Below, one piece after another: positions 7,006 through 53,791 of a stretch of DNA of 64,000 nt (its first letter is position 1; each line of letters begins with the position of its first letter). The notes beneath the pieces were generated by a model. It was not told the DNA's origin. It made no database searches and saw nothing but the letters and a program-made list of their open reading frames with translations. Origin of the DNA: an uncultured Candidatus Saccharibacteria bacterium (GTDB lineage: Bacteria; Patescibacteriota; Minisyncoccia; JACPXH01); the NCBI GenBank assembly GCA_964409225.1, contig CAYPCM010000002.1:413-64412 (forward strand), in the 5' to 3' direction. The position numbers and the translations under genes are program-made.

Positions 7006-7170
7006 TCGAATGTCTAATGCCAAAATCTAAATGTCAAATTCTCGACGCGCTCGCGCGGCTCGCTTGCTCGAATACTAAAATTATTCTTCGAGCGAGTCCC
7101 GAGCCGCCAGCCGGCGGAGAGGGACGAGTCGAGAAGTTGTCATTTGAACTTTGACATTTGTCATTCGTCA
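7006..7170. repeat. AT-rich intergenic segment with imperfect inverted repeats (aatgtcaaattctcgac ... gtcgagaagttgtcatttgaactttgacattt) and TGTCATTCG motif
   Basis: read directly; lies between the two minus-strand genes. Confidence 0.4.
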
Positions 7171-16042: not shown

Positions 16043-18706
16043 TTAAGCCGCGCGCACTCGGCCGAAGCATCGCTGCTTGGCGATTTCGAGGAACACGAGT
16101 TCCGCTGCGCTCACGCCGAACACAATGAGCCAATCAAACGGTTGAAGCGCGACCGTCGAAAGCACACGCTGGAACGCCGGCAGATACACGGCGAACATGA
16201 GGAGTAGAACCCCGAAGAGCCCCGCCGCAACCAGCAGCTTGTTTGAAAATATGTCTTCGCGCACGATGGGCTTGCGGATTGCCCGCACAATGAATGCAAG
16301 CACGAGCGAATCAATCGCCATGAGCGCAAATACTATAGTGCGCACCCGATCCAAATCCGGAATCTTAAGCCACAAAAGCACAAAAGTTCCGAGCGCCGCG
16401 ATTCCAGTGATGAGCGCCATGAAAGCGGCAAATTTCCGAAGCGGCCGGTGAAAAATCGGCTCAGCCGGATCGCGAGGCGGATCAGCCATAACTTCGTGTT
16501 CCTTGCCCTCAAAAGCGAGGGCAGTGCCGGGAAAGCCGTCTTCAATTACGTTAATCCATAAAATTTGCGCGGGCAGAAGCGGAATCGGCATGCCCATGGC
16601 CATGGTGCCTAAAAACAGAATGAGTTCTGAAAAGTCATCAGCCAGAAGATAGATAATGACTTTGCGAATAGTGCCGAAGGTGGTGCGGCCTTCTTCGACA
16701 GCGTCGGTAATTGTCTTGAAATTGTCGTCAAGTAAAATCATGTCCGCCGACTCTTTGGCCACATCGGTGCCTGAGCCAAGCGCCAGCCCCACGTCGGCGC
16801 GGCGAAGCGCCGGAGCGTCGTTCACTCCGTCGCCGGTCATAGCCACCACTTGCCCCATATTTTGCAGCGTCTCGACTATACGCACTTTGGTGCGCGGGAC
16901 CACCCTGGCAAAGACGCTATACGTCTGCAGTGAGTTCTGAAGCGTTTTATCCGACATCTCTTCCACTGCCTCGCCCGTAAGCACGTGTTCATCGTCGTCC
17001 TCGATCAAACCAACTTCTTTAGCCACGGCGAGGGCCGTACCCGGATGATCACCAGTTACCATGACCGGCCGGATGCCCGCGCGTCGGGCCGTAGCAATCG
17101 CGTGCTTGGCCTCAACTCTGATGGGATCTGAAAGTCCGATCAACCCGACAAAAGTGAGCTTTTTTACCAATTCGCTGACCTTTACGTAAGTCGGGCGCCT
17201 ATGGTAGCGGCGCGTCGCGCAAGCCACCACCCGAATACCTTGAGACGCAAGCCGCGCGACGTCGGCGCGAAGCGCTGCCCGCTTTTCCCGCGTGAGCGCT
17301 TCGGACGCACCGTCGGCGTGAAGTGTATCCGAGATGGCAATAAGTTGCTCCGGCTCGCCCAGCACCACCAAGAGCCAACCCTTACTGTCTTTGCGCAAGC
17401 TGGCCGCATACCCCCGGCTTGATTCGAACGATAGGTGGACTATTCTAGGATACTGACTTTCCAGTTCGTGCTTGCGAAGCCCGGAGTGCATCCCGGCCAA
17501 GACCAAAGCGCGCTCGGTTGGCCGGCCTCGCACCACCCAGTCCTTAAATGTTTCATCGGGATTTTCGATAAACGCATCGTTTGCGAGCACCGCTACTTTA
17601 AGGGCCACAATATGCGATTCAACGCCATTGTGATTAAAGTTCTCGTACGGCGGCTTATGCAGAAGTTCACGGGTGTTGGTTAAAATGTGGCTTACCTGCA
17701 TTCGTCCTTCCGTAAGCGTGCCGGTTTTGTCGGTACAGATAACGGTAATGGCGCCCAGCGTCTCCGTGGCCGCAAGGTTGCGCACAAGCCCGCGCACCCG
17801 TAAAACGCGGCGCATGCCAAGCGCGAGAACAACGGTCATAAGAGGCAATAGCCCCTCCGGGATGGCAGACACAATGAGCGCCAGCGACGCCACAAACAGC
17901 TCATCAAACGCCTTGCCGCGTGTGAGCCCCACGCCAAGCAAAACCACAACAAAAGCAACGATCCCCACGCCCAAAGCCATGGACAACCCGACGAGCCGAC
18001 GCTGCAGAGGCGTACGCACCCCAACTGTTTCGCCAAGCAGAGCGACGGTGCGGCCAAATTCTGTCGCGGCGCCAACTGCCGTAACTACGGCTTCGCCCTC
18101 GCCTTCAGCCGCCAAAGTACCGGCCCAGACCATGTTTACCCTGTTAGTTACAGCAGCATCTGCCGGTACCGCGTCTACCGATTTCATAACCGGCAGCCAT
18201 TCGCCGGTGAGAGCTGATTCTTCGGTTTTAAGATTGTCGGCCACGATAAGCCGGGCGTCGGCCGGAATGCGATCGCCCATGCGAATGGCGATGCGATCGC
18301 CCATCACAAGTTCTGCGGCGGGTATTATCCGGTCGTAGCCGCCACGCCGCACCCGCACCACTTCACGCACATAGCGCTTGAGCGCGGCCGCGGTGGCGCC
18401 GGCTTTACGTTCTTGAAAAAAACCAAGGACCGTATTGATGAGAATGACCAAGGCGATAAAGACGGCGTCAAACACATGCCCCAGCCAAATAGAAATTCCC
18501 ACCGCCACAAAAACAATGTAGATAAGCGGGGAATTAAACTGCCGCAGAAAAATTAACAGGGCCGAAGGCGGCCGCGGCAATGGAATCTCGTTGGACCCAA
18601 ACTCGCGCCGCCGGCGCTCAACCGCGGCTTTACCAAGGCCTTCAGGCGAGGGCGATAGACGCCTACAAACCTCAACAGCAGTTAACGAATGCCATGGTGT
18701 CTGCAT
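16043..18706 (-). CDS. cation-transporting P-type ATPase (type IIA, Ca2+/Mg2+-like)
   Basis: phosphorylation motif ICTDKTGTLT, hinge VAMTGDGVNDAPALRRADVGLALG; start at MQTPWHSLTAVEV (track ORF to 18913 is non-coding-looking extension). Confidence 0.9.
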   Translation of the reverse strand: MQTPWHSLTAVEVCRRLSPSPEGLGKAAVERRRREFGSNEIPLPRPPSALLIFLRQFNSPLIYIVFVAVGISIWLGHVFDAVFIALVILINTVLGFFQERKAGATAAALKRYVREVVRVRRGGYDRIIPAAELVMGDRIAIRMGDRIPADARLIVADNLKTEESALTGEWLPVMKSVDAVPADAAVTNRVNMVWAGTLAAEGEGEAVVTAVGAATEFGRTVALLGETVGVRTPLQRRLVGLSMALGVGIVAFVVVLLGVGLTRGKAFDELFVASLALIVSAIPEGLLPLMTVVLALGMRRVLRVRGLVRNLAATETLGAITVICTDKTGTLTEGRMQVSHILTNTRELLHKPPYENFNHNGVESHIVALKVAVLANDAFIENPDETFKDWVVRGRPTERALVLAGMHSGLRKHELESQYPRIVHLSFESSRGYAASLRKDSKGWLLVVLGEPEQLIAISDTLHADGASEALTREKRAALRADVARLASQGIRVVACATRRYHRRPTYVKVSELVKKLTFVGLIGLSDPIRVEAKHAIATARRAGIRPVMVTGDHPGTALAVAKEVGLIEDDDEHVLTGEAVEEMSDKTLQNSLQTYSVFARVVPRTKVRIVETLQNMGQVVAMTGDGVNDAPALRRADVGLALGSGTDVAKESADMILLDDNFKTITDAVEEGRTTFGTIRKVIIYLLADDFSELILFLGTMAMGMPIPLLPAQILWINVIEDGFPGTALAFEGKEHEVMADPPRDPAEPIFHRPLRKFAAFMALITGIAALGTFVLLWLKIPDLDRVRTIVFALMAIDSLVLAFIVRAIRKPIVREDIFSNKLLVAAGLFGVLLLMFAVYLPAFQRVLSTVALQPFDWLIVFGVSAAELVFLEIAKQRCFGRVRAA

Positions 18707-18765
18707 GTGCTTAAAGCATACCAAATTGGCGGACAAAACTTGTCCCCATACGGTCGTGCCTCCCC

Positions 18766-20331
18766 TCAACAGAACCGTGAAGCCAGCGTGTGAATATCGC
18801 CCGCACCCATTATGATCACGACGTCCACCGCCCCAAGCTCGTCGCGAATGAGGCGCTCTGTTTCCGGAAGATCGGCGCCGTACTGCGCCGGACGTCCGGT
18901 GCGCTGGAGACAACTCACAATTTCTCGGCTTGAAATTGCGATGTTTTCTTCCCGGCCCGAAACGTCAAAAATTTCGCTCACAATCACTTGATCAGCCAAC
19001 GCTAACGCCTCCACAAAACCGTCCAGGAAATGCTGCGTACGGTTTCGCTGGTGCGGCTGGAACGCCGCGAGAATCCGCCGACCCGGAAAAAACTCCCGCG
19101 CCGCGCGGATTGTTTCGCGCACCGCAGTCGGGTGATGAGCGTAATCAGAAACAATGATTTTACCCAACGCACCAGAAGGCCATCGGCTCCTGCCGGTGGA
19201 TGAATGGTTGGTGCGTCGGCCTTCGGTGCGGGGTTCCGCCCCGCCACCGAAGTACGAGGTGCCGCCGACTCCCGTCGGCGGGGCTCCACTTCGAGCCGTG
19301 TCGAGAAACTTGCCTTGTTCCGCGTCGAAGGGACGCGGGCCGTTCTGCCCACACATAATCTCAAATCGCCGCCAGGTGCCGCGGAAACTCGCGACTGCCT
19401 TTTGGATTTCCTCAACCCGAACGCCGAGAGCGTGTGCGGCGGCGATAGCCGCCAAGGCATTGAAGGCGTAAATCTCGCCCGGCAAACGCAACTGAAACTC
19501 GTACTCTTCTCGGGCTATCCGCACCCGCAATGACTGCCCGCCGTCATTGACCGCACGAGAAATCAACTGCACATCCACCGCCCCACCATCACTATCATAT
19601 ATTGATATATTATAGTGACGGGAGGCGCCGTAAGCGATTTTCTTGGCACGGCTGGTTTGGACGACTTCAACCACCGCTGGGTCATCGCGGTTATAAACCA
19701 AAATGCCTTCCGGCGTTAGTAGCGCGACGTACTCGCGGAAAGCGCTCTTGATGTCGTCGAAATCCTTAAAGTAGTCGAGGTGGTCAACTTCGATATTCGT
19801 AAGCGCTATCAGCCGCGGCCGGAGGTTGAGGAAATGCCGGCGGTACTCGCAGCCCTCGACGACGACATACTGACCACTTCCAACTCGTAGATTTGAGCCG
19901 TCGAAATTACCGACCCTGCTGCCCACAACCACAGTTGGATTAAGCCCCGACTCAACGAGAATATGGCCGAGCAAAGCAGTGGTTGTTGTTTTACCATTCG
20001 TGCCGGAAACCGCGATGCCGTACCTATTCGCCATCAAAGCGCCAAGTGCCTCGGGATATGACCGCTGCGGAATGCCGCGACGCTCTGCTTCAGCCCGTTC
20101 GGGGTTGTCGGAAGGCACCGCCGGCGAATACACCACGAGTTCGGTTTGAGTCGGTATATTCTCGGTCGCGTGGCCGATCGAGATGGCGGCACCAAGCCGC
20201 TCCAGTTCGGTTGTAATCTCGGACCGCTTCAAGTCCGATCCGCTCACCGCGCACCCACGATGTAAAAACAGCCGCGCCATGGCCGACACCCCAATCCCGC
20301 CAATGCCGATGAAGTGAGTATGTTGCGTCAC
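18766..20331 (-). CDS. murC: UDP-N-acetylmuramate--L-alanine ligase
   Basis: N-terminal HFIGIGGIGVSAMA, P-loop GTNGKTTTT, C-terminal DYAHHPTAV; contains ~60-aa low-complexity insertion. Confidence 0.9.
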   Translation of the reverse strand: MTQHTHFIGIGGIGVSAMARLFLHRGCAVSGSDLKRSEITTELERLGAAISIGHATENIPTQTELVVYSPAVPSDNPERAEAERRGIPQRSYPEALGALMANRYGIAVSGTNGKTTTTALLGHILVESGLNPTVVVGSRVGNFDGSNLRVGSGQYVVVEGCEYRRHFLNLRPRLIALTNIEVDHLDYFKDFDDIKSAFREYVALLTPEGILVYNRDDPAVVEVVQTSRAKKIAYGASRHYNISIYDSDGGAVDVQLISRAVNDGGQSLRVRIAREEYEFQLRLPGEIYAFNALAAIAAAHALGVRVEEIQKAVASFRGTWRRFEIMCGQNGPRPFDAEQGKFLDTARSGAPPTGVGGTSYFGGGAEPRTEGRRTNHSSTGRSRWPSGALGKIIVSDYAHHPTAVRETIRAAREFFPGRRILAAFQPHQRNRTQHFLDGFVEALALADQVIVSEIFDVSGREENIAISSREIVSCLQRTGRPAQYGADLPETERLIRDELGAVDVVIIMGAGDIHTLASRFC

Positions 20332-20343
20332 AAAGAGATCGCT

Positions 20344-20379
20344 TTCCTAATTATATCACGTACGTGATATAATTAGGAA
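20344..20379. promoter_or_regulatory. 36-bp perfect palindrome TTCCTAATTATATCACGTACGTGATATAATTAGGAA containing extended -10 TGATATAAT on both strands; 12 bp upstream of murC start
   Basis: read directly; identical copy at 28180-28215. Confidence 0.6.
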
Positions 20380-20442
20380 TGCCGAGAATACAACATGCTC
20401 GGTAACACAACCGGAACACGGAGCAAACGCCGGCCCAAAACG

Positions 20443-21150
20443 CTAAAAGCGCAAATAAGTATTCCAGTATTCGAACAGTTCTTTCGTGGCCATCAAATCC
20501 CCGGCGTTGTAGCGCGCGATCGCATCGAACTTCCCATCACGGAAAAGGCGTCCCACGTCGTCTCCGGTTACGCCTTCGGCCTTGGGGCTCTTGATGCCAA
20601 ATGCCCGGCACCACAGATGCAAGCTCCCTTTCCGGCGCACTGCGCCGTAGAACGTAAGCTGATCTTGCAGATCAATGTGAGCGGCGCCGCGCTGACTCGA
20701 CAAGTACCGATTCGACATAAGGTCAATCGTGGGCCGGATTTTGTGGATCGCCGAGCGGATCCCAAGAAACGGCGCATCAAACGACCGGCCCGCAAACGAA
20801 ATAAACTCGCGGTATTCCAATGCCCCCCTCCAAAACGCCGAGAGCATCTCAGCTTCGGTCATGGGCTTAAAACTGAATACCCCCTCCTCGAAAGGCTTAA
20901 TTTCTTGCCCAGCCGCATCAAAGTACACCGCGCCCTTGCCGCGGTCGGGATCATAGGCGCCGATCGCGACGATTTGGCCGGTCAATGGCGAAAACCCGAG
21001 GCCGTCTTTCAAGTCCTGCAACAGCCGCTCGTATTCGGTTTCATCGTCTGCCTCGCGCCGAATCCAACGCGTGAGCGCCTCTTGGGTGGTAGAGTCGAGT
21101 TGGTCGAAATCCTCGCCGACGGTTTCGATGTCGAAAATGAGTCGGGACAT
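20443..21150 (-). CDS. predicted 3'-5' exonuclease, RNase H-like (COG3298, PolB-exonuclease-like)
   Basis: Exo I motif LIFDIETVG at N-terminus, DEDD-type spacing. Confidence 0.7.
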   Translation of the reverse strand: MSRLIFDIETVGEDFDQLDSTTQEALTRWIRREADDETEYERLLQDLKDGLGFSPLTGQIVAIGAYDPDRGKGAVYFDAAGQEIKPFEEGVFSFKPMTEAEMLSAFWRGALEYREFISFAGRSFDAPFLGIRSAIHKIRPTIDLMSNRYLSSQRGAAHIDLQDQLTFYGAVRRKGSLHLWCRAFGIKSPKAEGVTGDDVGRLFRDGKFDAIARYNAGDLMATKELFEYWNTYLRF

Positions 21151-21159
21151 ATTTACGCA

Positions 21160-21657
21160 TCAAACCCTCTGCCACTCGGACTTCTTCCCTTGTCGTCGCT
21201 GCTCGACCAGCACAAGCTCGTCGTAAATGCCGTCGATCAGGTCGTACCGCTTCGCCTCTGCCAAACTCACCCAGACGTACTGGTCGGATTCACCCTCCTG
21301 TAACGCTACTTCTCCCGAGACATACTCTGCCGTACACGAAATAACCAACGACGGGCTGCCGTCAGAGTGCACCGTGGCGAGACTGGTAAGATACTCTATG
21401 TGCTCGATATCAATTCCCACTTCCTCGTTCACTTCTCTTCGGAGAGTGCGCTCGAGCACGTTGTACCAGTAGTGTTCGGTATCTTTGGGCAACTCCAAAT
21501 AATCCTTGGCTTCCAGTTTGCCGCCCGGCACGGTCCACATGCCCGGGAATCGTTTCTTACTCAGCGATCGTCTGATGATCAAATACTTGCCGCCTTTCAC
21601 AATAATGGCGGTAATTGCCACTTCATAAAGATACTGACCATTTGGGCTCATAGACAC
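21160..21657 (-). CDS. NUDIX hydrolase
   Basis: Nudix box GGKLEAKDYLE...TLRREVNEEVGI. Confidence 0.8.
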   Translation of the reverse strand: MSMSPNGQYLYEVAITAIIVKGGKYLIIRRSLSKKRFPGMWTVPGGKLEAKDYLELPKDTEHYWYNVLERTLRREVNEEVGIDIEHIEYLTSLATVHSDGSPSLVISCTAEYVSGEVALQEGESDQYVWVSLAEAKRYDLIDGIYDELVLVEQRRQGKKSEWQRV

Positions 21658-21786
21658 TTTTTAGCCTTCGGTTCGCTCAGGATTAAGAAGGGTTAAATCA
21701 AAAAGCTCGAACGTCCACGCGACCGCGCCTTGAAATAACTCCTCGTCTTCCCCCTACCACTTCCGCGTGGCACCAGCGTGGCGTTG

Positions 21787-22368
21787 CTAGCGCTTCACCG
21801 CAACTGCCACAATGTATCCTTTGTGCTGCCCGAGCTTTTTATAGTTCCCAAACACTTCTCGAAGGTTCCGTTTTATAAATTCTTTCAACCCAGCAATTGT
21901 AACCACAGAAAACGTGCCTCCCGGCTTCAGGTGTGCCTGCGCGTCGAACAGAAGAATGTCGAACAGCTCCCGACCTGTTTTTGCAGGTAGGTTCGAAACA
22001 ATAGCATCAAAACGGATCTCCGACACATGGCTCAACCCGTTCGACAAGTATACCTCGCAGTTGCGCAGCCCGTTCAGCTCGGCGTTTTTTTGCGCGTATT
22101 CCACCGCCACAAAATCTTTGTCTACCATGTGTACTACTCCCTGCGGAGCAAGCTTCGCCAGCAGGAGACCTATTGCGCCGTAGCCGCAGCCGATATCGAG
22201 AGCGACACCATCCGGCTGAACCGTCAGGTGCTCAATGAGCAACCGACTGCCATCGTCAACCTGAGTCGGGCTGAACAACCCCCACGTGCTGTGGAACGTC
22301 AAAGACTGCCCACGCAAACGCGCCATAAAAACTATGTCCTTTTTGAGATCTTGGATGTCTTTTTTCAC
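21787..22368 (-). CDS. class I SAM-dependent methyltransferase, small-domain (RsmC/RlmG-like) family
   Basis: motif I ALDIGCGYGAIG, motif IV-like VSNLPAK. Confidence 0.8.
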   Translation of the reverse strand: MKKDIQDLKKDIVFMARLRGQSLTFHSTWGLFSPTQVDDGSRLLIEHLTVQPDGVALDIGCGYGAIGLLLAKLAPQGVVHMVDKDFVAVEYAQKNAELNGLRNCEVYLSNGLSHVSEIRFDAIVSNLPAKTGRELFDILLFDAQAHLKPGGTFSVVTIAGLKEFIKRNLREVFGNYKKLGQHKGYIVAVAVKR

Positions 22369-22392
22369 GGAAACACCTACCGATCATTATAC

Positions 22393-22731
22393 TTACATTC
22401 GCAACCGGGCAGCATAGGCAAATTGGTCAAAATAGCGCACCAAATCTTCCAAGGAACTTTTATACTCCTTGCCCCCGGAAACTGCGTCCAGAAACACCTC
22501 TCTTGCTCTGGCGATTTCCCGTCGCCGTCCTTTCCAGCGCGAATCATCCAAGGTTAAATCAAAAAGTTCAAGCGCTCGCTCAATAGCACCAAAAAACAAC
22601 CTAGTATCTCTTTCTTTCCAGCGTAAGGCCCGCGAAACTTCGCTGCCAATATTCCCCAGCTGTTCCAGCAAAGAAAGCTGATACCAGCGCCCCGAGGCAA
22701 AAGTTTGGTGTTGGAAGACGGCCATGCTCAA
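22393..22731 (-). CDS. MazG-like nucleotide pyrophosphohydrolase domain protein (all-alpha NTP-PPase)
   Basis: LLEQLGNIGSEVSRAL resembles EExxE/D metal-binding helix of MazG family. Confidence 0.5.
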   Translation of the reverse strand: MSMAVFQHQTFASGRWYQLSLLEQLGNIGSEVSRALRWKERDTRLFFGAIERALELFDLTLDDSRWKGRRREIARAREVFLDAVSGGKEYKSSLEDLVRYFDQFAYAARLRM

Positions 22732-23078
22732 TCAACAATCAACGCGTTAACAATTTCCTTAATTTTTCCCTGCACCGCTTTATTTTCCACGCCGCGGGAA
22801 CGATTCCCAAAAGCCGGTTTGATATTAATCATCGAATCAAACTCGATCCAGTCCTCACCCGATTTTCCGGGATACAGATTAATACCCCACGTATGTTCGC
22901 GCTTCGAACCCTCCTTTTCCATTAACCACGTTTCTTCGTCTGCGTGAAGTTCGCCGCCAACAGCCATAATGCGCTGCTCAACGTCAACTACCGCTTTCAC
23001 CATGTCGCCAAATCCCTCCGCTGCGATTTCGGAAAGCGTCTGGCGCTTGATTGAGATTTTTACAATCCTAATATCCAT
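22728..23078 (-). CDS. hypothetical protein
   Basis: ORF overlapping neighbour by 4 nt (operon coupling). Confidence 0.5.
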   Translation of the reverse strand: MDIRIVKISIKRQTLSEIAAEGFGDMVKAVVDVEQRIMAVGGELHADEETWLMEKEGSKREHTWGINLYPGKSGEDWIEFDSMINIKPAFGNRSRGVENKAVQGKIKEIVNALIVD

Positions 23079-23150
23079 ACGCGCAGATTATATCACGCCG
23101 CAACTGCGCCCCATGGTACCTTATACTCTTATTACCGCACATGCAGAATC

Positions 23151-23498
23151 TCATTTTAATTCCATAACGATAAGCCCGTATTTTCTCAGTTTTTGCCGGT
23201 AGCCAGGAAAGCTATAATACATTCTTTCTAATTCAGCGGCCGTACTGCATCGAGGATGTATATCTCTGGGATCGTACTTCTTTAACATGGCCCCGACCGA
23301 ACGAAACTTCTTTACGTCATGAATGTCCTTTCGAAACTTTGATTTACCGCAGACCAAGAGCACGGTATCGCCTTTGGCAACTCGTTGATACTTCGTGCTC
23401 CCTGCGCGAGTTTCTAATTTTTTCTTACCGCTTTTTATCGCGTTGAATATGCCGCGATTAACAGCTCGAAATCTCAATATATGCTCTCTACGCCCCAT
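23151..23498 (-). CDS. ASCH (PUA-like) domain protein
   Basis: N-terminal ILRFRAVNRGIFNAIKSGKKKLETR...GDTVLL pattern typical of ASCH. Confidence 0.55.
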   Translation of the reverse strand: MGRREHILRFRAVNRGIFNAIKSGKKKLETRAGSTKYQRVAKGDTVLLVCGKSKFRKDIHDVKKFRSVGAMLKKYDPRDIHPRCSTAAELERMYYSFPGYRQKLRKYGLIVMELK

Positions 23499-23558
23499 GA
23501 CGCTTCTGTTACTTCTTCCACGGAACAGTTGCCGCTACGAAGACGGTGATTATTCAGC

Positions 23559-23807
23559 TCAATATGCCCTACTGCGATGTTTTATCCGATAAATTTTTAC
23601 CTCCTTGCTTTTGTCGTCAACCTCATACATTACACGCCAATCACCTATCCGAATGCGCCAAGCACTCTTCGAGCCTTCCAGTTTTTTGGCATTCGTTCTT
23701 GGACTATTTTCTAAGTTCAAAAGATGCGTAATGACACGATTACGCATCTTGGGCACAAGTTTATTGAGATCGCGTTCGGCTCTACGTTCAATGAAAACTT
23801 TATACAC
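23559..23807 (-). CDS. type II toxin, RelE/ParE family
   Basis: C-terminal WRIRIGDWRVMYEVDDKSKEVKIYRIKHRSRAY. Confidence 0.8.
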   Translation of the reverse strand: MYKVFIERRAERDLNKLVPKMRNRVITHLLNLENSPRTNAKKLEGSKSAWRIRIGDWRVMYEVDDKSKEVKIYRIKHRSRAY

Positions 23808-23994
23808 GTTCTCGGAGATACGCTTTCAGCTCCCGAAAGAAAGTTTTGCCCTTCTTTATCCGTTGCAGTTCTGCGAAATCCTCTTTTTCTTCCGCAGCTT
23901 CTAGCAGGCGCTCGTACTCTTTAATATCCAAGACCACGGCTTGAGGTTTGCCGTTGCGCAACACCACTTGTGGTCGTGAAGTGATTACAGACAT
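23800..23994 (-). CDS. antitoxin (Phd/YefM-like) partner of RelE
   Basis: 64-aa ORF overlapping toxin start by 8 nt; N-terminal beta-strand then acidic helix. Confidence 0.65.
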   Translation of the reverse strand: MSVITSRPQVVLRNGKPQAVVLDIKEYERLLEAAEEKEDFAELQRIKKGKTFFRELKAYLRERV

Positions 23995-24018
23995 ACGTCT
24001 TCAATATACCCCTTTGTC

Positions 24019-24258
24019 TTAAATCTCCGCGAGCGGGACACCCTTTCCCCGAGCGCGCAACGCCGCAAGAACATCGTCTCGCGTGAGACGGTATTCCCCC
24101 ATCACCTCCTCAACAGTCATACCCCCAGCAATCCCTCCAACAACCTCCACCGGTACGCGTGTACCGGTTATCACGGGTTTGCCAAACTGCACTTCAGGGT
24201 CGGCGGTGATACGCGGGAAAATTTCTTTCATATCCTCCCAGTGTAGGATGGGACACAT
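24019..24258 (-). CDS. DUF433 domain protein (antitoxin-like, orphan)
   Basis: PVITGTRVPVEVV...GMTVEEVMGEYRLTRDDVLAAL matches DUF433 consensus. Confidence 0.7.
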   Translation of the reverse strand: MCPILHWEDMKEIFPRITADPEVQFGKPVITGTRVPVEVVGGIAGGMTVEEVMGEYRLTRDDVLAALRARGKGVPLAEI

Positions 24259-24274
24259 GCGCTGTCAAACCGAA

Positions 24275-26986
24275 TTAAGCCCCATGGCATCTCTTATACT
24301 TTTTCCCGCTTCCGCACCAGCACGGATCGTTGCGGCCGATTTTTTGCCTGGTTTGAGTGGCGCTGCCTGCGGGACGTGAGGCAGATTCGCTGCCCTGCGA
24401 CGCACCTGCCAGCGCGAATTCGCGTGGCCGCTCGGCGCGGGCAGCCGCCGGCTGCGCCGAAACCTGCACGTGAAAAATCGCGTGCACAAACGTCGCTTGA
24501 ATCGCCGCTAAGAGTTCGTCAAACAGCCGCCGGCCTTCATTTTTATATTCCACCAAGGGATCCCGCTGGCCGTACGCGCGCAGGCGCACCGAATCGCGCA
24601 GGTGCTCCATGGCTTCCAAATGCTCCATCCAAAATCCGTCAATAGAACGCAGCAACAGCGCTCGCTCAACATTGCGCAGCACCTCTTTACTGACCGCCGC
24701 TTCGCGGGCATCGTGCGCCTCTAGCGCTGCCGCAGTCGCGCGCGCGGACACCGCAGCAAGGTTGGGGATTGCGGCCTCGATTTCCTGGCGCGCCGCGTCC
24801 GACACCGGAAAAAGCGCGCACAGGGCCTCGACAAGCTCGGCCTGCCGCCAGCTCGGCGCATCGCCGTCGGCGCCGTGCGCGGCCACGATCCGATGCGCTT
24901 CACCTTCAATCATCTCACGCACTTTCTCTCGGAGCGTCTCCTCTCCGCTTTCAAGCGCCTCGCGGCGCTTTTTGTAAACCACCTCGCGGTGCTTGTTCAC
25001 CACGTCGTCGTATTCCAAGACGTGCTTGCGCACATCAAAGTTGTACCCCTCAATGCGCGCTTGCGCCGCTTCAATGGCGCTGGAAACCATCTTTTGCTCA
25101 ATGGGCTGATCTTCGGGCACGCCGAGCCGCTCCATGAGATTTTTAATTTTCTCGCCGCCGAAAATGCGCATGAGGTCGTCCTCAAGTGAGACGAAAAAGC
25201 GCGTAGCGCCCGGATCGCCTTGCCGACCGGAGCGGCCTCTCAACTGATTATCAATGCGCCGCGCCTCGTGGCGCTCGGTGCCGATGACAAGCAAACCCCC
25301 GACTTCGCGCACTTTTTGCGCTTCGTCGGGCGAGGGCGGGTTGCCGCCGAGCACTATGTCCACCCCGCGGCCGGCCATGTTGGTCGCCACTGTCACTGCG
25401 CCATGCCGGCCCGCCTGCGCAATTATCGCGCCTTCACGTTCATGATTCTTAGCGTTCAACACCTCATGTCTGACGCCTTCACGGTTTAGCATTGCAGACA
25501 AACGCTCGTTTTTTTCAATGGAAATGGTGCCGACGAGGACTGGCTGCCCTCTTTCCTGCGCCGCCTTTATGGCTGAAGTAAGTGCACGCAGCTTGCCTCC
25601 TTCGGCTTTATACACGACATCGGGCAAATCCCCGCGAATCATGGGCTTATGCGTGGGGACTGAAACCACTTCGAGTTTGTAAACCTTGTGAAATTCTTCG
25701 GCCGAAGTGGCGGCCGTGCCGGTCATGCCCGCAAGCTTCCGGTACATGCGGAAGTAGTTTTGGAACGTAATCGTGGCGAGGGTCTTGGATTCCTTCTGCA
25801 CCTCAACGCCTTCTTTGGCTTCAATCGCCTGATGCAAGCCGCCCGAGTAGCGCCGCCCCGGCATAAGACGGCCAGTGAATTCATCTACAATAATCACCTC
25901 GCCTTCTTTGATCACGTAATCTCGATCACGCTGGAAGAGTATCTGCGCCTTGAGCGCTTCTTCTAGATGGTGGACAAACTGAATCGAGGCCGCGTCGTAA
26001 AGGTTGCCCATGTTGAGCATCTTTTCTACCCGCGAGATGCCGGCATCGGTGAGGGAAACCGCGCGCATTTTTTCATCCACCGTAAAATCCTCGCCGACAT
26101 TCAACTTCGGTACCACCCGGCTAAAAACCTCGTAGAGTTTAGTAGATTCGGTGTCGGGCGCGGAGATGATGAGGGGCGTACGCGCTTCGTCGATGAGAAT
26201 GGAATCCACTTCGTCCACAATCGCGAAGGTGTGCCCGCGCTGTACCATGTCAGCCATGTCATAAGCCATGTTGTCGCGCAGGTAATCGAAGCCGAATTCG
26301 TTGTTGGTTCCGTACGTGATGTCGGCCTCATACGCCTCTCGCCGCGAGACCGGACGCAAGAATTCATGGACCACCTTAAATCCACCCACTACATCCCGCT
26401 CGCGGTCCGCTTCGTCGTTTTGGGATTTTGTGCTTGTGGCTTGTCTCGGATTTCGGATTTCGGATTTCGGATTTTGAGCCGAGCGATGCTCGGCGTCATA
26501 AAGATACGCCTGCTCATGATTCAGACACCCAACACTCAACCCCAATGCGGCGTAAATCTGCCCCATCCACACCGCATCGCGCCGCGAGAGGTAATCGTTG
26601 ACCGTAACGATATGCACGCCCTTGCCTTCGAGCGCGTTTAGGTAGGCAGAGAGTGTGGCCACGAGCGTCTTGCCTTCGCCGGTCTTCATCTCGGCGATCT
26701 TGCCTTGATGCAGCGCCATCCCGCCCATAAGCTGCACGTCAAAATGCCGCTGGCCGAGCGTGCGCTTGGCTGCCTCGCGCACCGCGGCAAACGCCTCCGG
26801 CAAAAGATCATCTAACGCCTCGCCTCCCTCGAGTCGCTTCCTGAATTCGCCAGTTTTCTCTTTTAATGCAGAACCTGAAAGCCGCTCGAAGTCCGCTTCG
26901 AGCGCGTTGATTTGCTCCACGATTGGCTGGAGCTTTTTTATGTCTCGATCGTTGGAATCGCCAAAAATGCGGCCAAATAACGCCAT
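24275..26986 (-). CDS. secA: preprotein translocase ATPase SecA
   Basis: DEAD-like motor motifs, C-terminal zinc finger [14 protein letters not shown]; contains in-frame insertion with 7-mer tandem repeat. Confidence 0.95.
26427..26458. repeat. tandem heptamer (CGGATTT)x4 inside secA coding sequence
   Basis: gtctcggatttcggatttcggatttcggattttgagc read directly. Confidence 0.6.
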
Positions 26987-27150
26987 GATTGACTGTTTAG
27001 CGCTCCCAGTGTAACGTACCTCACTGGGTTTTGAAAGACCGCGAGGGTGTCATGCGGAATACCGTAGAACCTCGCTTCGCCTTAAAATGACGCGCGAGAC
27101 TCGCTCTTTACAACCGAATAACGACCAACCGTAACGGAAGGAGGACTGTC

Positions 27151-28077
27151 GTGGAGATGATCGCAACGTGGCGAGAACACGGGCTGCGGATGATGCAACG
27201 CGATGACAATACTGTCCAGGTTCTCGACGACAACGACTGGGCAATCGGCATTGTTCACGACGTAGAGCAACTGGTGGCCGTCTGCCAAAGCCGCCGCGGG
27301 CAACAAATCGCGATCGTGGACACGGTGCGCTTTGGCCGATCGCTCTGGGTGGACGGCTGGCTGCAGTTTGCGATGTTGGACGAACACCGCTACCACCAGC
27401 TGCTGGTATTGCCGGCGCTGCTCGCTCATACCAACCCGCGCCGCGTGCTGATCCTGGGCGGAGGCGACTACCTTGCCGCCTGGCGCGTGCTCATGCGCCG
27501 AGGGATCGAGCGCGTCAAGATTGCGGATTGGGACAAGACTGTCTCCACGCTCGTACTCGAACATTTCTCTGAAATCCGCGAGCTTGGCGTACACGATGAT
27601 CCGCGCGTTGACTTTTCAGAGGAACTGGACGTAACCCGGTACCTGCCGAACACCGGCGACAGCTTCGATGTAATCATCGAAGATCTCACCGAGCCGGAAA
27701 CCCTTGAGCAGCTTGTGCCGGGCGCGCTTGGGTATCTTAAGCGCATGCTAAGGCCGGGCGGCGTGCTCGTGGCCCAAGCCGGCGAGCTTTCGCTCGCTGC
27801 AAAACCGCTCGAACAACTCGCCGCTACGGTCAAGCGAGTGCGCGAGTTCTTTCCCTGCGTATGCGTGTACGGCTATCCCATCGAGTCGTTCTCCTACACG
27901 CAGGCCTTCACCGCGGCGTGGAAGGACGCGGAGGTCTCGCCGATCATCTTCGACTGGGAGATAGCGCACCGCTGCACTGCGGCGCTCGGCAGGCCCGACC
28001 GCCCCTTTTACGGACCGGAGATCCAGTTAGCCGCTTTCACGCTCGATCCTACGATCAAACAAGCGATCGGGCTATAG
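27151..28077 (+). CDS. spermidine synthase-like polyamine aminopropyltransferase
   Basis: HQLLVLPALLAHTNPRRVLILGGGDYLAAWRVL resembles SpeE HEMLxHxxL..P..VLIIGGGDG. Confidence 0.75.
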   Translation: MEMIATWREHGLRMMQRDDNTVQVLDDNDWAIGIVHDVEQLVAVCQSRRGQQIAIVDTVRFGRSLWVDGWLQFAMLDEHRYHQLLVLPALLAHTNPRRVLILGGGDYLAAWRVLMRRGIERVKIADWDKTVSTLVLEHFSEIRELGVHDDPRVDFSEELDVTRYLPNTGDSFDVIIEDLTEPETLEQLVPGALGYLKRMLRPGGVLVAQAGELSLAAKPLEQLAATVKRVREFFPCVCVYGYPIESFSYTQAFTAAWKDAEVSPIIFDWEIAHRCTAALGRPDRPFYGPEIQLAAFTLDPTIKQAIGL

Positions 28078-28179
28078 CACTAATCGCCTTGCGCAACCTC
28101 AATCCTTAAGCGGCCGACCCTTCGGGTCGGCCGCTGTCTACTTCATTCTCCTATACTTAAAAACTGCCTAGAAACCCTC

Positions 28180-28215
28180 TTCCTAATTATATCACGTACG
28201 TGATATAATTAGGAA
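28180..28215. promoter_or_regulatory. second copy of the 36-bp perfect palindrome TTCCTAATTATATCACGTACGTGATATAATTAGGAA
   Basis: identical to 20344-20379; here between convergent spermidine-synthase-like gene and hpf. Confidence 0.6.
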
Positions 28216-28387
28216 ACCATATAACGTCATTCCCCCTACGCTCTTCTTGGGCTATACGATTGTTTAGGGATTGCTTCGCCCACCTAACTCTTGGCGTCCT
28301 ATTGGCACGAGGCAATAAACCATCAAGCAGTCCGCCCTCTACTCTCGCAAAAGTTAGGCGGGCTCGCAGTGACGGCATGTGGAAGCC

Positions 28388-28807
28388 CTACCTCCTAAAC
28401 TTCTTTTTCTCGCGCTTCAACCAAGCAGCCGGTGAAAACGATTTCAAAAACTTGGCGATCCGCGCTCCACGTTCGTAAAGCGCACGGCGTTTCCCCTTGT
28501 ACTGGGCAAGCTCTTGCAACACCTCATCGCGCATCCGGTCAATCGCCGTGTATATATCGACTTCTTCTCGCACCACTCGCACCATACCTCCGGGAAAACG
28601 CAAATTCATCTCGGCTTTATACACTTCGCCTTGACGGTGGTGCCGCGTGGTCCGGCCAATTTCCACATACGCTTCTGCTTCATCGCCCCAGCGGCTAAGA
28701 ATCCTTTCCAAGCTATCCATCCGCTCGGCCACGTGAGCCGAGATTGAATCAGTAAGTTCAAGGTTTGTCGCCTTCAGCTGAAAACGCATACCAATAATAC
28801 CTACCAC
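28388..28807 (-). CDS. hpf: ribosome hibernation promoting factor (HPF/RaiA family)
   Basis: MRFQLKATNLELTDSISAHVAERM...EVYKAEMNL typical HPF; real start may be the Met at 28789. Confidence 0.8.
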   Translation of the reverse strand: MVGIIGMRFQLKATNLELTDSISAHVAERMDSLERILSRWGDEAEAYVEIGRTTRHHRQGEVYKAEMNLRFPGGMVRVVREEVDIYTAIDRMRDEVLQELAQYKGKRRALYERGARIAKFLKSFSPAAWLKREKKKFRR

Positions 28808-29329
28808 TGGAGACGTAAGAATACATCGATTGGTTTCATCTCCATGTTAGCATACGAAGCGAGCCGAGTCGAGAACTTACCACCCGGCCCAAAACAAACA
28901 ACCCGCCCGCCAGTCGCGGGTCGGGGTTGTTTTAAAGCGAGCCCGTCTCCACACCAAAAGCTGTGAAGACGGGCGAAACGCTTGATCTCAGCGGCGGCGG
29001 CGCTTGGCCGTCTTCTTCGCTGCCCGTCGTTTCTTTGCCATTGTCGTATGCCGTGACGCGCTGTTTCGCGGTCGCCCAAAAATCCAAAACCGAGAAACAC
29101 GCTGTTAGGATGTAACGAAAGTCGACCGCGCGAGCGCCGCATTCACTCATTACCGCACGCTCATCGCAAATTACTTTCGTTCGCGTACGCGAAAATTATT
29201 TTTTTAACTTTCGCGTGCAGTTATGCATTTATTATATAGAACACGCACGCAATAGAAAAGTGTGGATAACTTTCTGTGTAGAAAAAGACGAGACGACAGC
29301 AAAATTGTTACAGATAGATGCAGAAAACT

Positions 29330-29450
29330 TGTGAGAAAACATCGCTATCTCAAAACGCAAGGCGCATAACTCAAAATGCAACTTAAAACGTAAAGTTTTT
29401 CGCTTTGCGCTGTGACTTTGCGTTTTGAGCTTTGAACTTTACGCTTTCAG
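29330..29450. repeat. short tandem/inverted motifs (ctcaaaaCgcaa, ctcaaaaTgcaa, cttaaaacgtaaag, ctttgcg x3) in 630-bp AT-rich region upstream of hpf
   Basis: read directly. Confidence 0.35.
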
Positions 29451-30380
29451 ATACCGAACTTCTTCTTCCAATTCGATCCCTGTTTTTTCGTACACTCGCT
29501 GTTTGATAAGCAAAATAAGTTGCATAATGTCCCGCGCCGTCGCTGAACCAATATTCACAATAAAGTTTGCATGCTTCCGGGATACTTCCGCCCCGCCTAC
29601 CCGCACGCCCTTAAGACCACATTCGTCAATAAGCTTGCCGGCCAGCTGCTTAGCAGAAGGGTTTTTGAAAATACACCCCTCTGAACGGTCGCCGAGCGGC
29701 TGATGAGCACATCGGGCGGCCATCACTCGCTGTATTTCCGCAGTAATTGACGCTGGATCATTGTCTGTTTTGAGCTGAAAGACGCCCCGGAATATAACCG
29801 TCCCCGGCCATTCCTTAAAATTCGACCAACGGTAGCGAAATTGAACTTCCGGAGGCGCGAGAATAGTAGGGTCAGACCCTCCTATGACGCCAGCTGATCC
29901 GATCACCGTTACCTCACGAATGAACTCTCCGGTGGCGTGACCAAATGCCCCGGCATTGCCGAAGATCGCCCCGCCCACGGTCCCGGGCAGTCCCGCCGCC
30001 CACTCGAACCCCGTAAGTCCTGCTTTTGCCGCTTCCTGCACGACCCGGCCCATCGGCACGCCTGCGCCGACAGTCACGCTCCCGTCTGATTGCATCTCAA
30101 AATCAGTATTCTCGACTTTGATGACGAGCCCGGGAAACCCCTCGTCAGCCGCAAGCACATTCGTGCCTCCGCCCAATACGAACACGGGCATACTGCGTGC
30201 TTCAGCCCATGAAAGCGCCTCGGCCGCTTCTTCGCTGGAACGAACCCGCGCAAAAAACCGCGCCGGCCCGCCGACGCGGAAAGTGGTAAGGGGAACGAGA
30301 GAAATATTCTCCTGAATGTGCATGAGGAAAACGACACTCGTTACTGTTCGAGCGAGCGAAGCGAGTCGGGAACCTACCAT
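29439..30380 (-). CDS. murB: UDP-N-acetylenolpyruvoylglucosamine reductase
   Basis: FAD-binding domain LVPLTTFRVGGPARFF, C-terminal MurB domain; GGAG SD. Confidence 0.9.
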   Translation of the reverse strand: MVGSRLASLARTVTSVVFLMHIQENISLVPLTTFRVGGPARFFARVRSSEEAAEALSWAEARSMPVFVLGGGTNVLAADEGFPGLVIKVENTDFEMQSDGSVTVGAGVPMGRVVQEAAKAGLTGFEWAAGLPGTVGGAIFGNAGAFGHATGEFIREVTVIGSAGVIGGSDPTILAPPEVQFRYRWSNFKEWPGTVIFRGVFQLKTDNDPASITAEIQRVMAARCAHQPLGDRSEGCIFKNPSAKQLAGKLIDECGLKGVRVGGAEVSRKHANFIVNIGSATARDIMQLILLIKQRVYEKTGIELEEEVRYLKA

Positions 30381-30639: not shown

Positions 30640-30709
30640 AAGGAAACTTCTCGACTCGTCTCTCTCCGCCAGCCGGCGGATCGAGACTCGCTCGAAGAAT
30701 AATGCCTCA

Positions 30710-32731: not shown

Positions 32732-32777
32732 ATGTACATTCTACAAAAAATATCGCGGCTGATCAAGAAAAACAATT

Positions 32778-33957
32778 GGCGGAGACCCCGGAGGATCTCC
32801 GCCCTGTGCGGGAACACGCCCTGCCCAACTCGGCTGGACCAAATTTAGCCGAACCGGGCTGCGTTGGAGAATCGGCGGCGTTCGCCTGCAGGCGAACGCC
32901 GCCCTGCGCTGGACAACGCCTCACCTTGATATGCCGTGCGCTGCTTAACTCTAGCAAACGGCAGCATGCCGGGGAGACGATTCTGAATTTGGGATTCGGC
33001 GAGGCGCTGATCTGCGCCTCGCCCCGTGCGTAGGGAAACCTTGCGACATCCCGCGAAGCGATACTTCACGTAACAAGGCCCTGACGTGCTCCGCAAGGCG
33101 TTGCGGTGTGTATCCCAAGAAAGAACAGAATGTGATTGACGAAGCCTGTCATTGACAGGCTTCGTCCCGTGCAAAGTCCTGCTGGACTGGAGCTTACTAG
33201 GGCACACACCACTATACTGGAGTGAGCCACACGCCACAAAGCAATGGCGTGATTGTAAAACAGAGTTTTGGCAGAGAGCCCGCGGGCTCTCTGCCCCGTG
33301 CGAAAGCAAGGAGGAGCCGGCAGCGCGATACTTTGCTCGAGCGCACCACGCGATGCAGAACTCAACCCTGCCGTGGTTTGCGGGAGATGGCGGGGATTTT
33401 TACAAGAATCCCCGCCCCATGCCCAACTCTGCAAAACTGAACCCAGCTTGGCTAAGCTTTACAAGGCCTGGCCCCGCTCAGCTTGGCAAAACATATATAA
33501 CATCCACAACATAACTAGTCAAGCTCAAACAGCAAAGAAAGACGGGAGCCGAATCGGCTCCCGTCCCGTGCCCTGCGCTGCTATGTCGTACCACAGCTAG
33601 CTGGACAAAACTTCGCCCGACAGCACGGAGATGTGTGAACGATATTGATGAGTGGCGGGGACTCTTTCGAGCCCCCGCCCCGTGCAGAACTTCACTGGAG
33701 GTTGCTACAGACAGCTCTGCTGGGCTGCGCCTTGGAGTGTGAACAGCAAGGTTGTCCGTAGACAACGAAATCTCTGCTACCCAGAAAGTGTCGGCGAGGC
33801 GCAGGAGTGCGCCTCGCCCCGGGCTACGCGGTACCCCACGCGGCCTGACTCCGCCTCACCACACAAGGCGAAACCAAACCATGGTCGGAAGGCGAACTAG
33901 TGTGCCGGTACATTCACCAGAGTTGACAGGGGCGCCCGAAGGCGCCCCTGTCCCGTG
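32778..33957 (-). repeat. array A: ~10 tandem ~125-bp units, each = variable GC hairpin (10-16 bp stem; sequence differs, structure conserved) + invariant CCGTGC (plus-strand reading); on minus strand GCACGG-hairpin-U-tract terminators of small-RNA-like units
   Basis: hairpins at ~32778, 32874, 32998, 33138, 33270, 33389, 33541, 33654, 33792, 33924 each followed by CCGTGC (variants CTGTGC/CTGCGC/CCATGC/CCGGGC); internal TTGACT-N17-TATATA promoter at 33494-33522 on minus strand. Confidence 0.7.
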
Positions 33958-34042
33958 CTGGACCAAGCTGGGCCCGACTTGACCGAACCGAGCCCGACCC
34001 TAGACGACCAAGGGCTGGTTTGCCCAGGTGCGTGAAACGACA

Positions 34043-35836: not shown

Positions 35837-35929
35837 CTCTCCTCCCTGCTCGCGTTACGCGAGACTGAACCAGGGTTGCGGTGATGGGAGCTTCTTCGTA
35901 GGAGCTCCCAGATGTCAAAGATCAACCGT

Positions 35930-35961
35930 TTTGATATATCAAAAACAGAAAACTTTGTCAA
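35930..35961 (-). promoter_or_regulatory. promoter for DinG-like gene: TTGACA-N17-(TGa)TATATC on minus strand, embedded in the lead of repeat unit 12
   Basis: reverse complement of 35933-35961 reads TTGACAaagttttctgtttttgaTATATC. Confidence 0.45.
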
Positions 35962-36263
35962 TGTTTCAAAAAAGAAACGGCGGGGATCCGGAAGGATCCC
36001 CGTCCCGCGCATCGCCACACTTAGCTCGACCCTGCGATAGTGAGCAACGGTGGACGGCGTAGTGGTACAAGTAGAAGGAACGATTATGGCGGCGGGGCTC
36101 ACCGCAGAAACTGGCGAGGTCGCCATTGGGCGACCTCGCCCTGTGCAACGCGACGCGATGCTTTACTCTGACCCGCCGAACGCCACCCTGCTGGACATTA
36201 CTTGACTCTGCAGAACCGCGTTGCTAAAAGAACAGACGGCAGGGAACCCTTTGGATCCCTGCC

Positions 36264-36374
36264 CCGTGCCACGCAGCGCCGAACCACGCCATAAGGTACC
36301 GGAGCTCGCCCTGAAGCGCCGCATCGAGCTCTGCTGTGGTCGGCTCTGTAAAATATCATTATCACAAGTAAAAC
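36264..36374 (-). ncRNA. example of one predicted small-RNA unit (~110-125 nt): promoter TTGACA-N15-TGtGATAAT (36368-36394) -> body with internal hairpin gagctcg..cgagctc -> GCACGG + terminator hairpin (unit 14) + UCUGUUCUUUU
   Basis: promoter, body and intrinsic terminator all readable on minus strand. Confidence 0.35.
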
Positions 36375-36899
36375 TACCTGTCAATGTTCAATGTTCAAAA
36401 AGAAGCGGCGGGGATCCTTCCGGATCCCCGCCCCGTGCCAAACTCTACAGAACTGAACTCAGCCTAGGCCGACTCCACTCTGAGCGGCACCGCTACGGCG
36501 AGTTAAGCTCCGCGGCCTTAGGGTAAATTTGCGAGAGCCCTGATGGGAGCTCCCGCCCGTGCTGGGCCTTAGACTACGCGACCCTGCTAAGCACCGGACA
36601 ACTCCGCAATGCGCGACCGCACTAAGAGGATATTCTACAGAAGCGATGATGGAACCCTCCAGTGGAGGGTTCCATCCCATGCGAGACCAGACGCTACTGC
36701 GCTGCACCAGACGGTAACTGGGTTAGCGTAGCAAGGCCGGGCCGCACCGGGCGGCTCCGAGAAAAGGCGGGGATCCAAACCGCGGATCCCCGCCCCATGC
36801 GCTGCTCTGCGCTGCTGAACTGGACCAAACGAAGACGAGTCACGCTGCGCCGAACCGAGTAGCCTAAACGCCGTAAGCCCCAAGGAAGAGAGCCTTGCC

Positions 36900-37607: not shown

Positions 37608-37639
37608 GGCTTACCTCCTGGGCTTTCTGCCCGTGAGAG

Positions 37640-53298: not shown

Positions 53299-53791
53299 CG
53301 TTTCCTCCTTGGCACCGCGCGCCTCTGAAGACCGACTGAAAAGAACCCGAGCGAACCTCTGCCTGTGCCGCCGCTCCGGCGGCAGGCATTTCGCTCTTCT
53401 AAACGTTCACCCACTACAATGTAATGATACATTGTAGTGGAACCAGCGCTCGGAAGAACGGGCGAGGCCAGGAGACCTCGCCGAATTATTGAAGAGGGTT
53501 TGAGCGGTCGTCCGCATTTGTTTCGCCCCATGGGGGAGCCCCGAACGGGGATGCGGACCAATGCACGCTCTGACATTGTACCCTCGGACAACGCCGCCGG
53601 TTGGCAGCCGACGGTGGGATTTGGCCTCTGCCGCGGAGCCGTTGTAGTACGCGCGCCCAAAACTCGCGAGCGCGCCGGCTCTCCCCGCATACGTTTTGCA
53701 TCTCCGAGGTGCCAACTCTCGGATGCAACCCGCATTGCGGGGTGGCAGTGCCTGACGAGGAACCCATCAGACCCCGGAAAAAGAACAGAAA

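Follow-up and report, generated by a model that had tools for sequence, protein, structure and literature searches.

We describe a 36-nt perfect palindrome that occurs twice, 7.8 kb apart, in a 64,000-nt stretch of DNA from an uncultured Candidatus Saccharibacteria bacterium (assembly GCA_964409225.1, contig CAYPCM010000002.1, positions 413 to 64,412; the whole stretch is called the window below). Copy 1 (20344-20379) lies in the spacer between the stop codon of a gene for a PolB-like 3'-5' exonuclease and the start of murC, and copy 2 (28180-28215) lies in the spacer between the convergent genes hpf and speE-like. We estimate a probability of about one half that the palindrome is a conserved cis-regulatory DNA module in which two outward-facing extended -10 promoters enclose a central dyad operator. 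Judging from the aligned forms of the element in related genomes, the sequence rules of the sigma-70 -10 element and the dyad symmetry are both kept.

The palindrome and its counterparts in related genomes

The 36-mer TTCCTAATTATATCACGTACGTGATATAATTAGGAA was found as an exact match at both positions in a scan of the 64-kb window. It consists of 18 + 18 nt without a spacer, is fully self-complementary, starts with TTCC at its 5' end and contains 72% A+T, compared to 57% G+C in the window. The similarity of the two copies ends 1 nt past the 36-mer and the flanks are unrelated, in agreement with the original prediction. No further match with up to three mismatches exists in the window, where 100 dinucleotide-preserving shuffles gave an expectation of zero. 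When half-sites, the central 14-mer, the -10 element with the outer arm and a relaxed dyad were sought across the window, only the two known copies exceeded chance level. Scans of the GTDB species genomes (185,579), JGI metagenomes and IMG/VR with 18-20-nt cores and a degenerate architecture pattern yielded no further members, and the core matches found lacked flank similarity and are attributable to chance. Phage records gave just partial chance matches. Rfam assigned no family within the whole window at the gathering threshold, and its E-value mode returned only meaningless miRNA-type hairpins around both copies. A literature search on the core sequence retrieved nothing relevant.

Since direct pattern scans gave chance matches only, orthologous loci were traced via MurC, HPF and the SpeE-like protein. 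In GCA_016204195.1, whose MurC and HPF are 64% and 69% identical to those of the window, the spacer between the exonuclease gene and murC (locus L002, 877-912) contains TTCCTAATTATCTCACGTACGTGAGATAATTAGGAA. It matches copy 1 at 34 of 36 positions, differs by one symmetric pair change (A12C/T25G) and is a perfect palindrome over 44 nt. The hpf-speE spacer of this second species, which is represented by four independent assemblies, carries a 36-mer identical to copy 2 (L015, L016 and L017; assemblies GCA_016204195.1, GCA_016207185.1 and GCA_964522735.1). In a third lineage (L003 and L019, the latter from GCA_964373035.1) a diverged form, GTCTCAATTCTAGCACGATCGTGGTATAATTGAGAC, is located 42 nt past the murC stop codon and 187 nt before a P-type ATPase gene, and at a further locus (L004) a related form, truncated by the contig end, follows the murC stop codon at 39 nt. 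Variants of the element are present in GCA_964373035.1 and two Logan assemblies. No copy was found after hpf in L014, L019, L020, L022 and L023; L024 is uninformative in this respect as its contig ends 58 nt past the speE stop codon.

The palindrome is thus neither unique to one assembly nor explained by chimeric assembly. Contig JACPLK010000018.1 of the Candidatus Parcubacteria metagenome-assembled genome GCA_016186535.1, which encodes the MurC of the window, corresponds to window positions 3713-63945 and contains both copies far from any join. In other assemblies the element occupies orthologous sites and always lies inside syntenic sequence, which rules out an assembly artefact or a linker. 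Because two species carry the element at both loci, the duplication is old and precedes their split. The identity of the two copies had been taken to suggest either recent copying or strong constraint, and the first of these explanations is not supported.

This distribution bears on the possibility that the palindrome is a selfish small repeat, similar to repetitive extragenic palindromes (REPs) or a miniature mobile element, that spreads among intergenic regions and perhaps carries outward promoters. Within one syntenic neighbourhood the element sits in differing spacers, namely exonuclease-murC (window and L002), murC-ATPase (L003/L019 and L004) and hpf-speE (window and L015). Moreover, there is no difference between the copies of the window genome, every lineage has a variant of its own, and the genome contains other short dispersed repeats. 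On the other hand, the 64 kb contain just two copies, with neither degenerate copies nor half-sites besides, and no further members emerged from the collection scans. The flanking trinucleotides (GCT/TGC and CTC/ACC) reveal no target-site duplication, the GTAG head typical of REPs is absent, and neither a transposase nor a RAYT or Y1 transposase was detected among the window proteins scanned. Orthologous copies are at least as similar between species as are the two paralogues within GCA_016204195.1, as expected for old sites that are kept vertically. We therefore regard spreading as a selfish repeat as improbable. An assignment as a miniature inverted-repeat transposable element was rejected, because the palindrome is spacerless and has no internal segment between terminal repeats, in addition to the missing target-site duplication.

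Conserved bases and strength of conservation

Four distinct forms of the element, from four lineages, were aligned column by column. Columns T2, C3, A6-T9, T11, C14-G17, C20-G23 and A26-T30 are invariant, and on each arm the invariant bases cover the TG of the extended -10 element as well as -11A and -7T. The constant bases thus comprise CGTG, A26 and AATT. The unconstrained 'n' of TGnTATAAT falls in column 24, which reads A/G/G and is the least-paired position, with pair (13,24) unpaired in two forms. At the unpaired cell (10,27) the hexamer of L003 that does not face the gene has changed to TAGAAT. L003 and L004 retain the TGnTATAAT sequence as TGGTATAAT / TGTTATAAT, and L002 retains it as TGAGATAAT. 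In L003 the gene-facing arm retains a perfect TGGTATAAT and the opposite arm has decayed to TGCTAGAAT; L004 has TGnTATAAT on both arms with differing n.

The symmetry of the element is retained along with these bases. Across the forms 95.5% of the cells are complementary, compared to 31-46% if the partners are slid, and changes on both sides affect five pairs, (1,36), (4,33), (5,32), (12,25) and (18,19), whereas no pair changes on a single side. One-sided changes of the G-U type were not encountered among 66 cells. Three cells are unpaired (C-U, G-G and A-G), all of them at degenerate promoter positions. The 4-nt centre is self-complementary in every form, reading GTAC or, in L003 and L004, GATC.

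Covariation of this kind can also be produced by a nucleic-acid hairpin, either a stem of 16-18 bp, transcribed within the exonuclease-murC message and the 3' region of hpf and involved in processing (e.g. by RNase III), RNA stability or termination, or a DNA hairpin or cruciform bound by a protein. The predicted RNA stem has a free energy of -19.9 kcal/mol for the window form (z -8.5) and of -30.4 kcal/mol for the 44-nt form of L002. Arm complementarity has grown by four bases per side in L002 and by one base per side, to 38 nt, in L015. Furthermore, every copy lies 35-187 nt past a stop codon on the sense strand of a transcription unit, and a long hairpin next to copy 2 favours the hpf-sense strand. 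However, structure alone would hold neither the primary sequence at 36/36 and 34/36 identity nor an exact TGnTATAAT on both arms. The lack of G-U intermediates, the confinement of unpaired cells to degenerate promoter positions and the self-complementary centre, which a loop does not need, likewise argue against a hairpin function, which we consider unlikely overall. Neither copy is followed by a run of U or listed in the terminator scan, and ordinary terminators in these genomes are G+C-rich hairpins. With its 72% A+T stem and the tails AGCGATCTC and GAGGGTTTC, the palindrome was rejected as an intrinsic terminator.

Neither the symmetric changes nor the growth of the arms were counted as proof of selection for structure or for an operator, because template switching can cause both. 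This mutational process corrects quasipalindromes by copying between the arms of inverted repeats (PMC7202029, PMC8604942, PMC13100816). It accounts for symmetric double substitutions and for an extension to 38 and 44 nt without selection (PMC8604942, PMC13100816). Being a mutational process and not a function, it leaves the conservation of the promoter bases unexplained.

How much weight the conservation of each copy can bear depends on its surroundings. Between the window genome and GCA_016204195.1, four-fold degenerate sites are 56% identical overall and 39-81% identical by gene, and sliding windows reveal patches of 90-98% identity within a background of 55-75%. Copy 1 retains 34/36 positions although the spacer flanks are only about 50% identical and contain indels, with 63 vs 35 nt upstream and 12 vs 88 nt downstream in the window and L002, respectively. 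The neighbouring patch of high identity in the exonuclease gene stops at the stop codon. At the overall four-fold rate the probability of at least 34 matches in 36 is about 4e-7, and the comparison with its flanks thus places copy 1 under strong constraint by purifying selection. For copy 2 the same claim had to be downgraded. It lies inside a patch of about 1 kb and about 90% identity that extends from the 3' end of hpf to the middle of speE, which makes its perfect identity weakly informative. Sliding windows and four-fold sites identify the patch as a mosaic segment of recent common ancestry, so that the 87-91% identity of the spacer cannot be read as strong constraint.

The mosaic pattern is an observation in its own right. 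In the comparison of window positions 16043-30380 with L002 and L015, four-fold identity amounts to 39% in the ATPase gene, 40% in hpf, 78% in the speE-like gene and 81% in the exonuclease gene, with sharp patch borders. Such mosaic divergence suggests frequent recombination between these Parcubacteria lineages. Inside murC, a 36-nt A+T-rich quasi-palindrome coding for RHYNISIYDSDG (19586-19621; L002 1723-1758) is conserved at 35/36 positions in the related species. It falls within a 450-nt patch of 92-98% identity, while the remaining murC is 59-74% identical.

Predicted promoter architecture

Both strands of both copies contain TGATATAAT, so that each arm has the full consensus of an extended -10 element, an exact TGnTATAAT, as stated by the original prediction. 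The hexamers occupy positions 7-12 and 25-30 of the 36-mer and are 12 bp apart; the predicted transcription starts would be about 37 bp apart, and there is no usable -35 element. At copy 1, the element facing murC (20350-20358, minus strand) predicts a start at about 20343, so that the leader would measure about 12 nt up to the GTG start codon at 20331. The element facing away (20365-20373, plus strand) would yield an RNA antisense to the exonuclease gene. At copy 2, the minus-strand element (28186-28194) points toward a hairpin terminator and could give rise to a hypothetical RNA of about 70-75 nt, from 28179 to about 28107, and the plus-strand element (28201-28209) points toward the 3' end of hpf, where a hypothetical RNA would be antisense to the hpf 3' region.

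The gene murC (18766-20331, minus strand) encodes a protein with the Pfam domains Mur_ligase, Mur_ligase_M and Mur_ligase_C. Its GTG lies 12 bp from the palindrome, as predicted, and inspection of the sequence upstream of it revealed no in-frame alternative. Copy 1 belongs to a string of minus-strand genes, 63 nt past the stop codon of the exonuclease gene (20443-21150, minus strand) and 12 nt ahead of the GTG. Among the neighbouring genes, murC is the most probable target of copy 1. The distance of 18 nt between the copy-1 hexamer and the GTG is comparable with that of other TATAAT sequences in the window (8, 17 and 17 nt). The predicted murC leader has no Shine-Dalgarno sequence.

The use of this hexamer elsewhere in the window points in the same direction. 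Four of the 11 exact TATAAT sequences are those of the palindromes. Five of the remaining seven fall into the 15% of the window without long open reading frames (ORFs), each facing a start codon at a distance of 8, 17, 17, 43 or 88 nt (P ~0.001). Apart from the palindromes, TGATATAAT occurs 8 nt before the ATG of a DUF5674 gene and as part of a perfect TTGACA-17-TGATATAAT promoter on the minus strand (59445-59420). Below the latter, the sequence is A+T-poor and looks structured, and the next ORF (58633-59376) has no Pfam match; Rfam did not match this region even in E-value mode. Elements of the -10 type only 8-17 nt before the start codon were noted for the DUF5674 gene (23087-23095), a methyltransferase gene (22386-22391) and the P-type ATPase gene (18715-18723; L001 11609-11617). 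Short or absent mRNA leaders seem to be common in this genome, as far as can be told from such spacings. In three lineages a conserved TGGTATGCT of its own precedes the ATG of the P-type ATPase gene by 8 nt.

Extended -10 promoters recognized by sigma-70 without a -35 element are the closest counterpart of each arm. The arm is a perfect TGnTATAAT, the TG, -11A and -7T are invariant, and the distance to murC is promoter-like. In contrast to such promoters, the palindrome fuses two of them back to back, and one of the copies has no gene to serve. The suggestion of a bidirectional promoter was borne out in part. The constant bases are those that define an extended -10 element and the free 'n' varies, in agreement with a promoter, whereas membership in the known class of bidirectional promoters was rejected. 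Bacterial bidirectional promoters (Warman et al. 2021, as described in PMC10268837) have one common -10 element with reciprocal -7/-11 positions and starts typically 18 bp apart, in a range of 7-25 bp. The palindrome resembles them as symmetric DNA that would engage RNA polymerase in two ways, one binding event excluding the other. It differs by two separate hexamers 12 bp apart, by predicted starts about 37 bp apart and by a symmetry that extends over 36-44 bp.

Central dyad and candidate regulator

The centre of each copy (20354-20369 and 28190-28205) matches the dyad TATCAC-GTAC-GTGATA, a candidate operator that overlaps the TG and the first two hexamer bases of both promoters. The 6-nt half-sites are identical to those of the Thermococcales glycolytic motif (TGM), TATCAC-N5-GTGATA, the operator of the TrmB-family regulators TrmBL1/Tgr, which repress where their site overlaps core promoter elements (PMC4158304, PMC4706686). 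The overlap with core promoter elements is a second likeness to the palindrome. However, the palindrome belongs to a bacterium and the TGM regulators are archaeal. Relatives keep only TA-CAC-N4-GTG-TA of the dyad, and with N5 spacing the window offers a single match to the motif, which includes a mismatch and is no more than chance would give.

The window encodes a TrmB-family winged-helix protein of 250 aa (60466-61218, minus strand; Pfam PF01978, E 5.5e-17; PDB 3QPH TrmB, E 6.7e-5), which we regard as a lead for the regulator of the dyad. It is a candidate binder only, and since no dyad precedes the TrmB-like operon, autoregulation was rejected. A strict TGM assignment was dropped as well, given the 4-nt spacer of the dyad and a score of the window protein far below the TrmBL1 cut-off. 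Further motifs were discarded on spacing or sequence, among them parS, matS, SlmA sites, LexA boxes, NrdR, Fur/Zur/PerR, CRP/FNR, the cop box, MerR-type dyads and protelomerase targets. That the palindrome might be the operator of a dimeric regulator had been put forward before. The dyad symmetry is indeed kept through evolution, but template switching would give the same pattern, and the binding protein is so far a candidate.

A second conserved A+T-rich palindrome, CCACTACAATGTAATGATACATTGTAGTGG, is located at 53411-53440 of the window. In a related genome (L019 12873-12902) an almost identical copy precedes murB by 19 nt, and each arm contains TACA-N-TGTA, which we take to resemble cop-box or BlaI-type operators.

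Proposed mode of action and points against it

If the palindrome is a promoter-operator module, two extended -10 promoters (TGATATAAT) would face outward, back to back, around the central dyad, and one dimeric regulator would bind TATCAC-GTAC-GTGATA. Because each half-site overlaps the TG and the start of the hexamer, binding of a single dimer could block both promoters. A polymerase sitting at one promoter would itself occlude the opposite one. Copy 1 would serve as the murC promoter with the short leader given above, and copy 2, in the long hpf 3' region, might produce a short RNA that ends at the shared terminator, an antisense RNA to hpf, or both. The symmetry may partly be kept by template switching between the arms, beside selection. 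The element would thus be comparable to a pair of extended -10 promoters with an operator, with the starts, the RNAs of copy 2 and the binding protein all predicted from sequence.

Several observations weigh against the module just described. The most serious is that copy 2 has no downstream gene in either direction. The original prediction already noted that its position between convergent genes argues against a simple promoter role, and we agree; the RNAs proposed instead are hypothetical and have no Rfam match. The placement of all copies behind stop codons would fit a 3'-end RNA element equally well. In L003 and L002 the downstream gene has a nearer -10 element of its own (TGGTATGCT before the ATPase ATG and TATATT before murC, respectively). 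A promoter alone needs neither the pairing of the outer arms, which covary from TTAGGAA to TTGAGAC on both sides, nor the arm growth that made the L002 palindrome perfect over 44 nt. The 36/36 identity of copy 2 has a probability of about 0.02-0.05 given its patch. Regarding the regulator, the spacer of the dyad is 4 nt (GTAC, or GATC in L003/L004) instead of the 5 nt of the TGM, and no further dyad site exists in the window, including the region upstream of the TrmB-like operon. Moreover, the TrmB-like protein reaches only 36.7 bits against NCBIfam TrmBL1 (cut-off 650), within the N-terminal helix-turn-helix only, and is hence not a TrmBL1 orthologue.

A more far-reaching version, which we regard as speculative and quite improbable, would be a lineage-specific Parcubacteria regulon. 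Here, a TrmB-family repressor would act on the TGM-like dyad and control two promoters, murC would be coupled to an antisense or small RNA at hpf, the symmetry would stem from template switching, and the element would relocate between neighbouring spacers.

Correia elements are repeats that can carry outward promoters, and REPs occur in many copies, often clustered, with a GTAG head and a RAYT gene. With both the palindrome shares its nature as a short, intergenic, multi-copy palindrome with possible outward promoters and the ability to fold as RNA. It differs from them by a very low density, the missing target-site duplication, the absence of a cognate transposase in the window and its orthologous sites, and it is much shorter than Correia elements.

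To our knowledge, transcription signals and regulators have hardly been characterized in bacteria of the candidate phyla radiation, which cannot be grown alone. The palindrome offers a concrete, short and conserved sequence for in vitro work, and a candidate regulator can be named along with it. Should the promoter-operator reading hold, reduced genomes would rely on extended -10 promoters of consensus sequence and on very short leaders and would exert dedicated control over at least one cell-wall gene, and the operator logic of archaeal-type TrmB proteins may exist in bacteria. The finding would be an ordinary one if the palindrome were only a hairpin of structural function or a repeat without any. 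As a regulatory element it is unusual but not revolutionary.

Gene neighbourhood and further observations

The interval of 7.8 kb between the copies contains secA, the speE-like gene, other housekeeping genes and a toxin-antitoxin pair. Two identical long palindromes at this distance could be sites of DNA transactions, for instance sites at which a site-specific recombinase or an invertase acts on the stretch between them, the att sites of an island, or centromere-like sites of the parS type. The consensus of parS is TGTTNCACGTGAAACA with a TCAC...GTGA core, which the palindrome has as well, and the identity to related species is mosaic around the sites. However, no recombinase was found among the genes of the interval, L019 has the same gene order and orientation without either window copy, and the patches of high identity do not stop at the palindromes. 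The half-site spacing is 4 bp off the parS consensus. A role as recombination or target site, considered earlier, therefore appears very unlikely.

Copy 2 lies 102 nt from the stop codon of the speE-like gene (27151-28077, plus strand) and 172 nt from that of hpf, the gene of a ribosome hibernation factor (28388-28789, minus strand). The 172 nt between the palindrome and the hpf stop codon (28216-28387, minus strand) form a conserved noncoding block that shares 91% identity with L015 and is missing in L014 and L019. It folds as a long hairpin with G-U pairs on the hpf-sense strand only. A coding role for a 63-aa ORF in this block was rejected, as its frame is broken by a 16-nt insertion in L015. 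On the other side of copy 2, positions 28136-28179 are 87.5% identical in L015 and are followed by a G+C-rich hairpin terminator (28109-28135) common to the convergent speE-like and hpf units. An identical hairpin is found in L019, and in L015 its stem has undergone a compensatory change from A-T to G-C. In L014 and L019 the hpf stop codon leads almost directly to the same terminator, so that the block, palindrome included, has been added to the 3' region of hpf only in part of the lineages.

Upstream of hpf, the spacer of about 600 nt toward murB (28801-29438) contains TATAAT at 29231-29236. An arginine-rich ORF of 113 aa within it (28801-29142) is not conserved as a protein in the relative, so that the spacer may not hold a gene but form a long leader of hpf. 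A more distant relative has two perfect inverted DnaA boxes (TGTGGATAA-C-TTATCCACA) between murB and hpf (L020 12664-12692). A dispersed 59-nt repeat occurs at 7080-7138, 30645-30703 and 54312-54349 with 87-92% identity; two copies are inverted relative to the first, and one is located in the spacer upstream of murB. The region 32768-37781 contains at least ten G+C-rich hairpins, each followed by CCC(G/C)TGC on the plus strand. Read on the minus strand, they have the form of intrinsic terminators (hairpin and T-run) with GCACGGG before each, which suggests that short, related transcription units are arranged in tandem. Finally, MurC of the window carries a low-complexity insert of about 60 aa (GPRPFDAEQGKFLDTARSGAPPTGVGG...; residues ~330-392) between the middle and C-terminal ligase domains, which is missing or much shorter in relatives.

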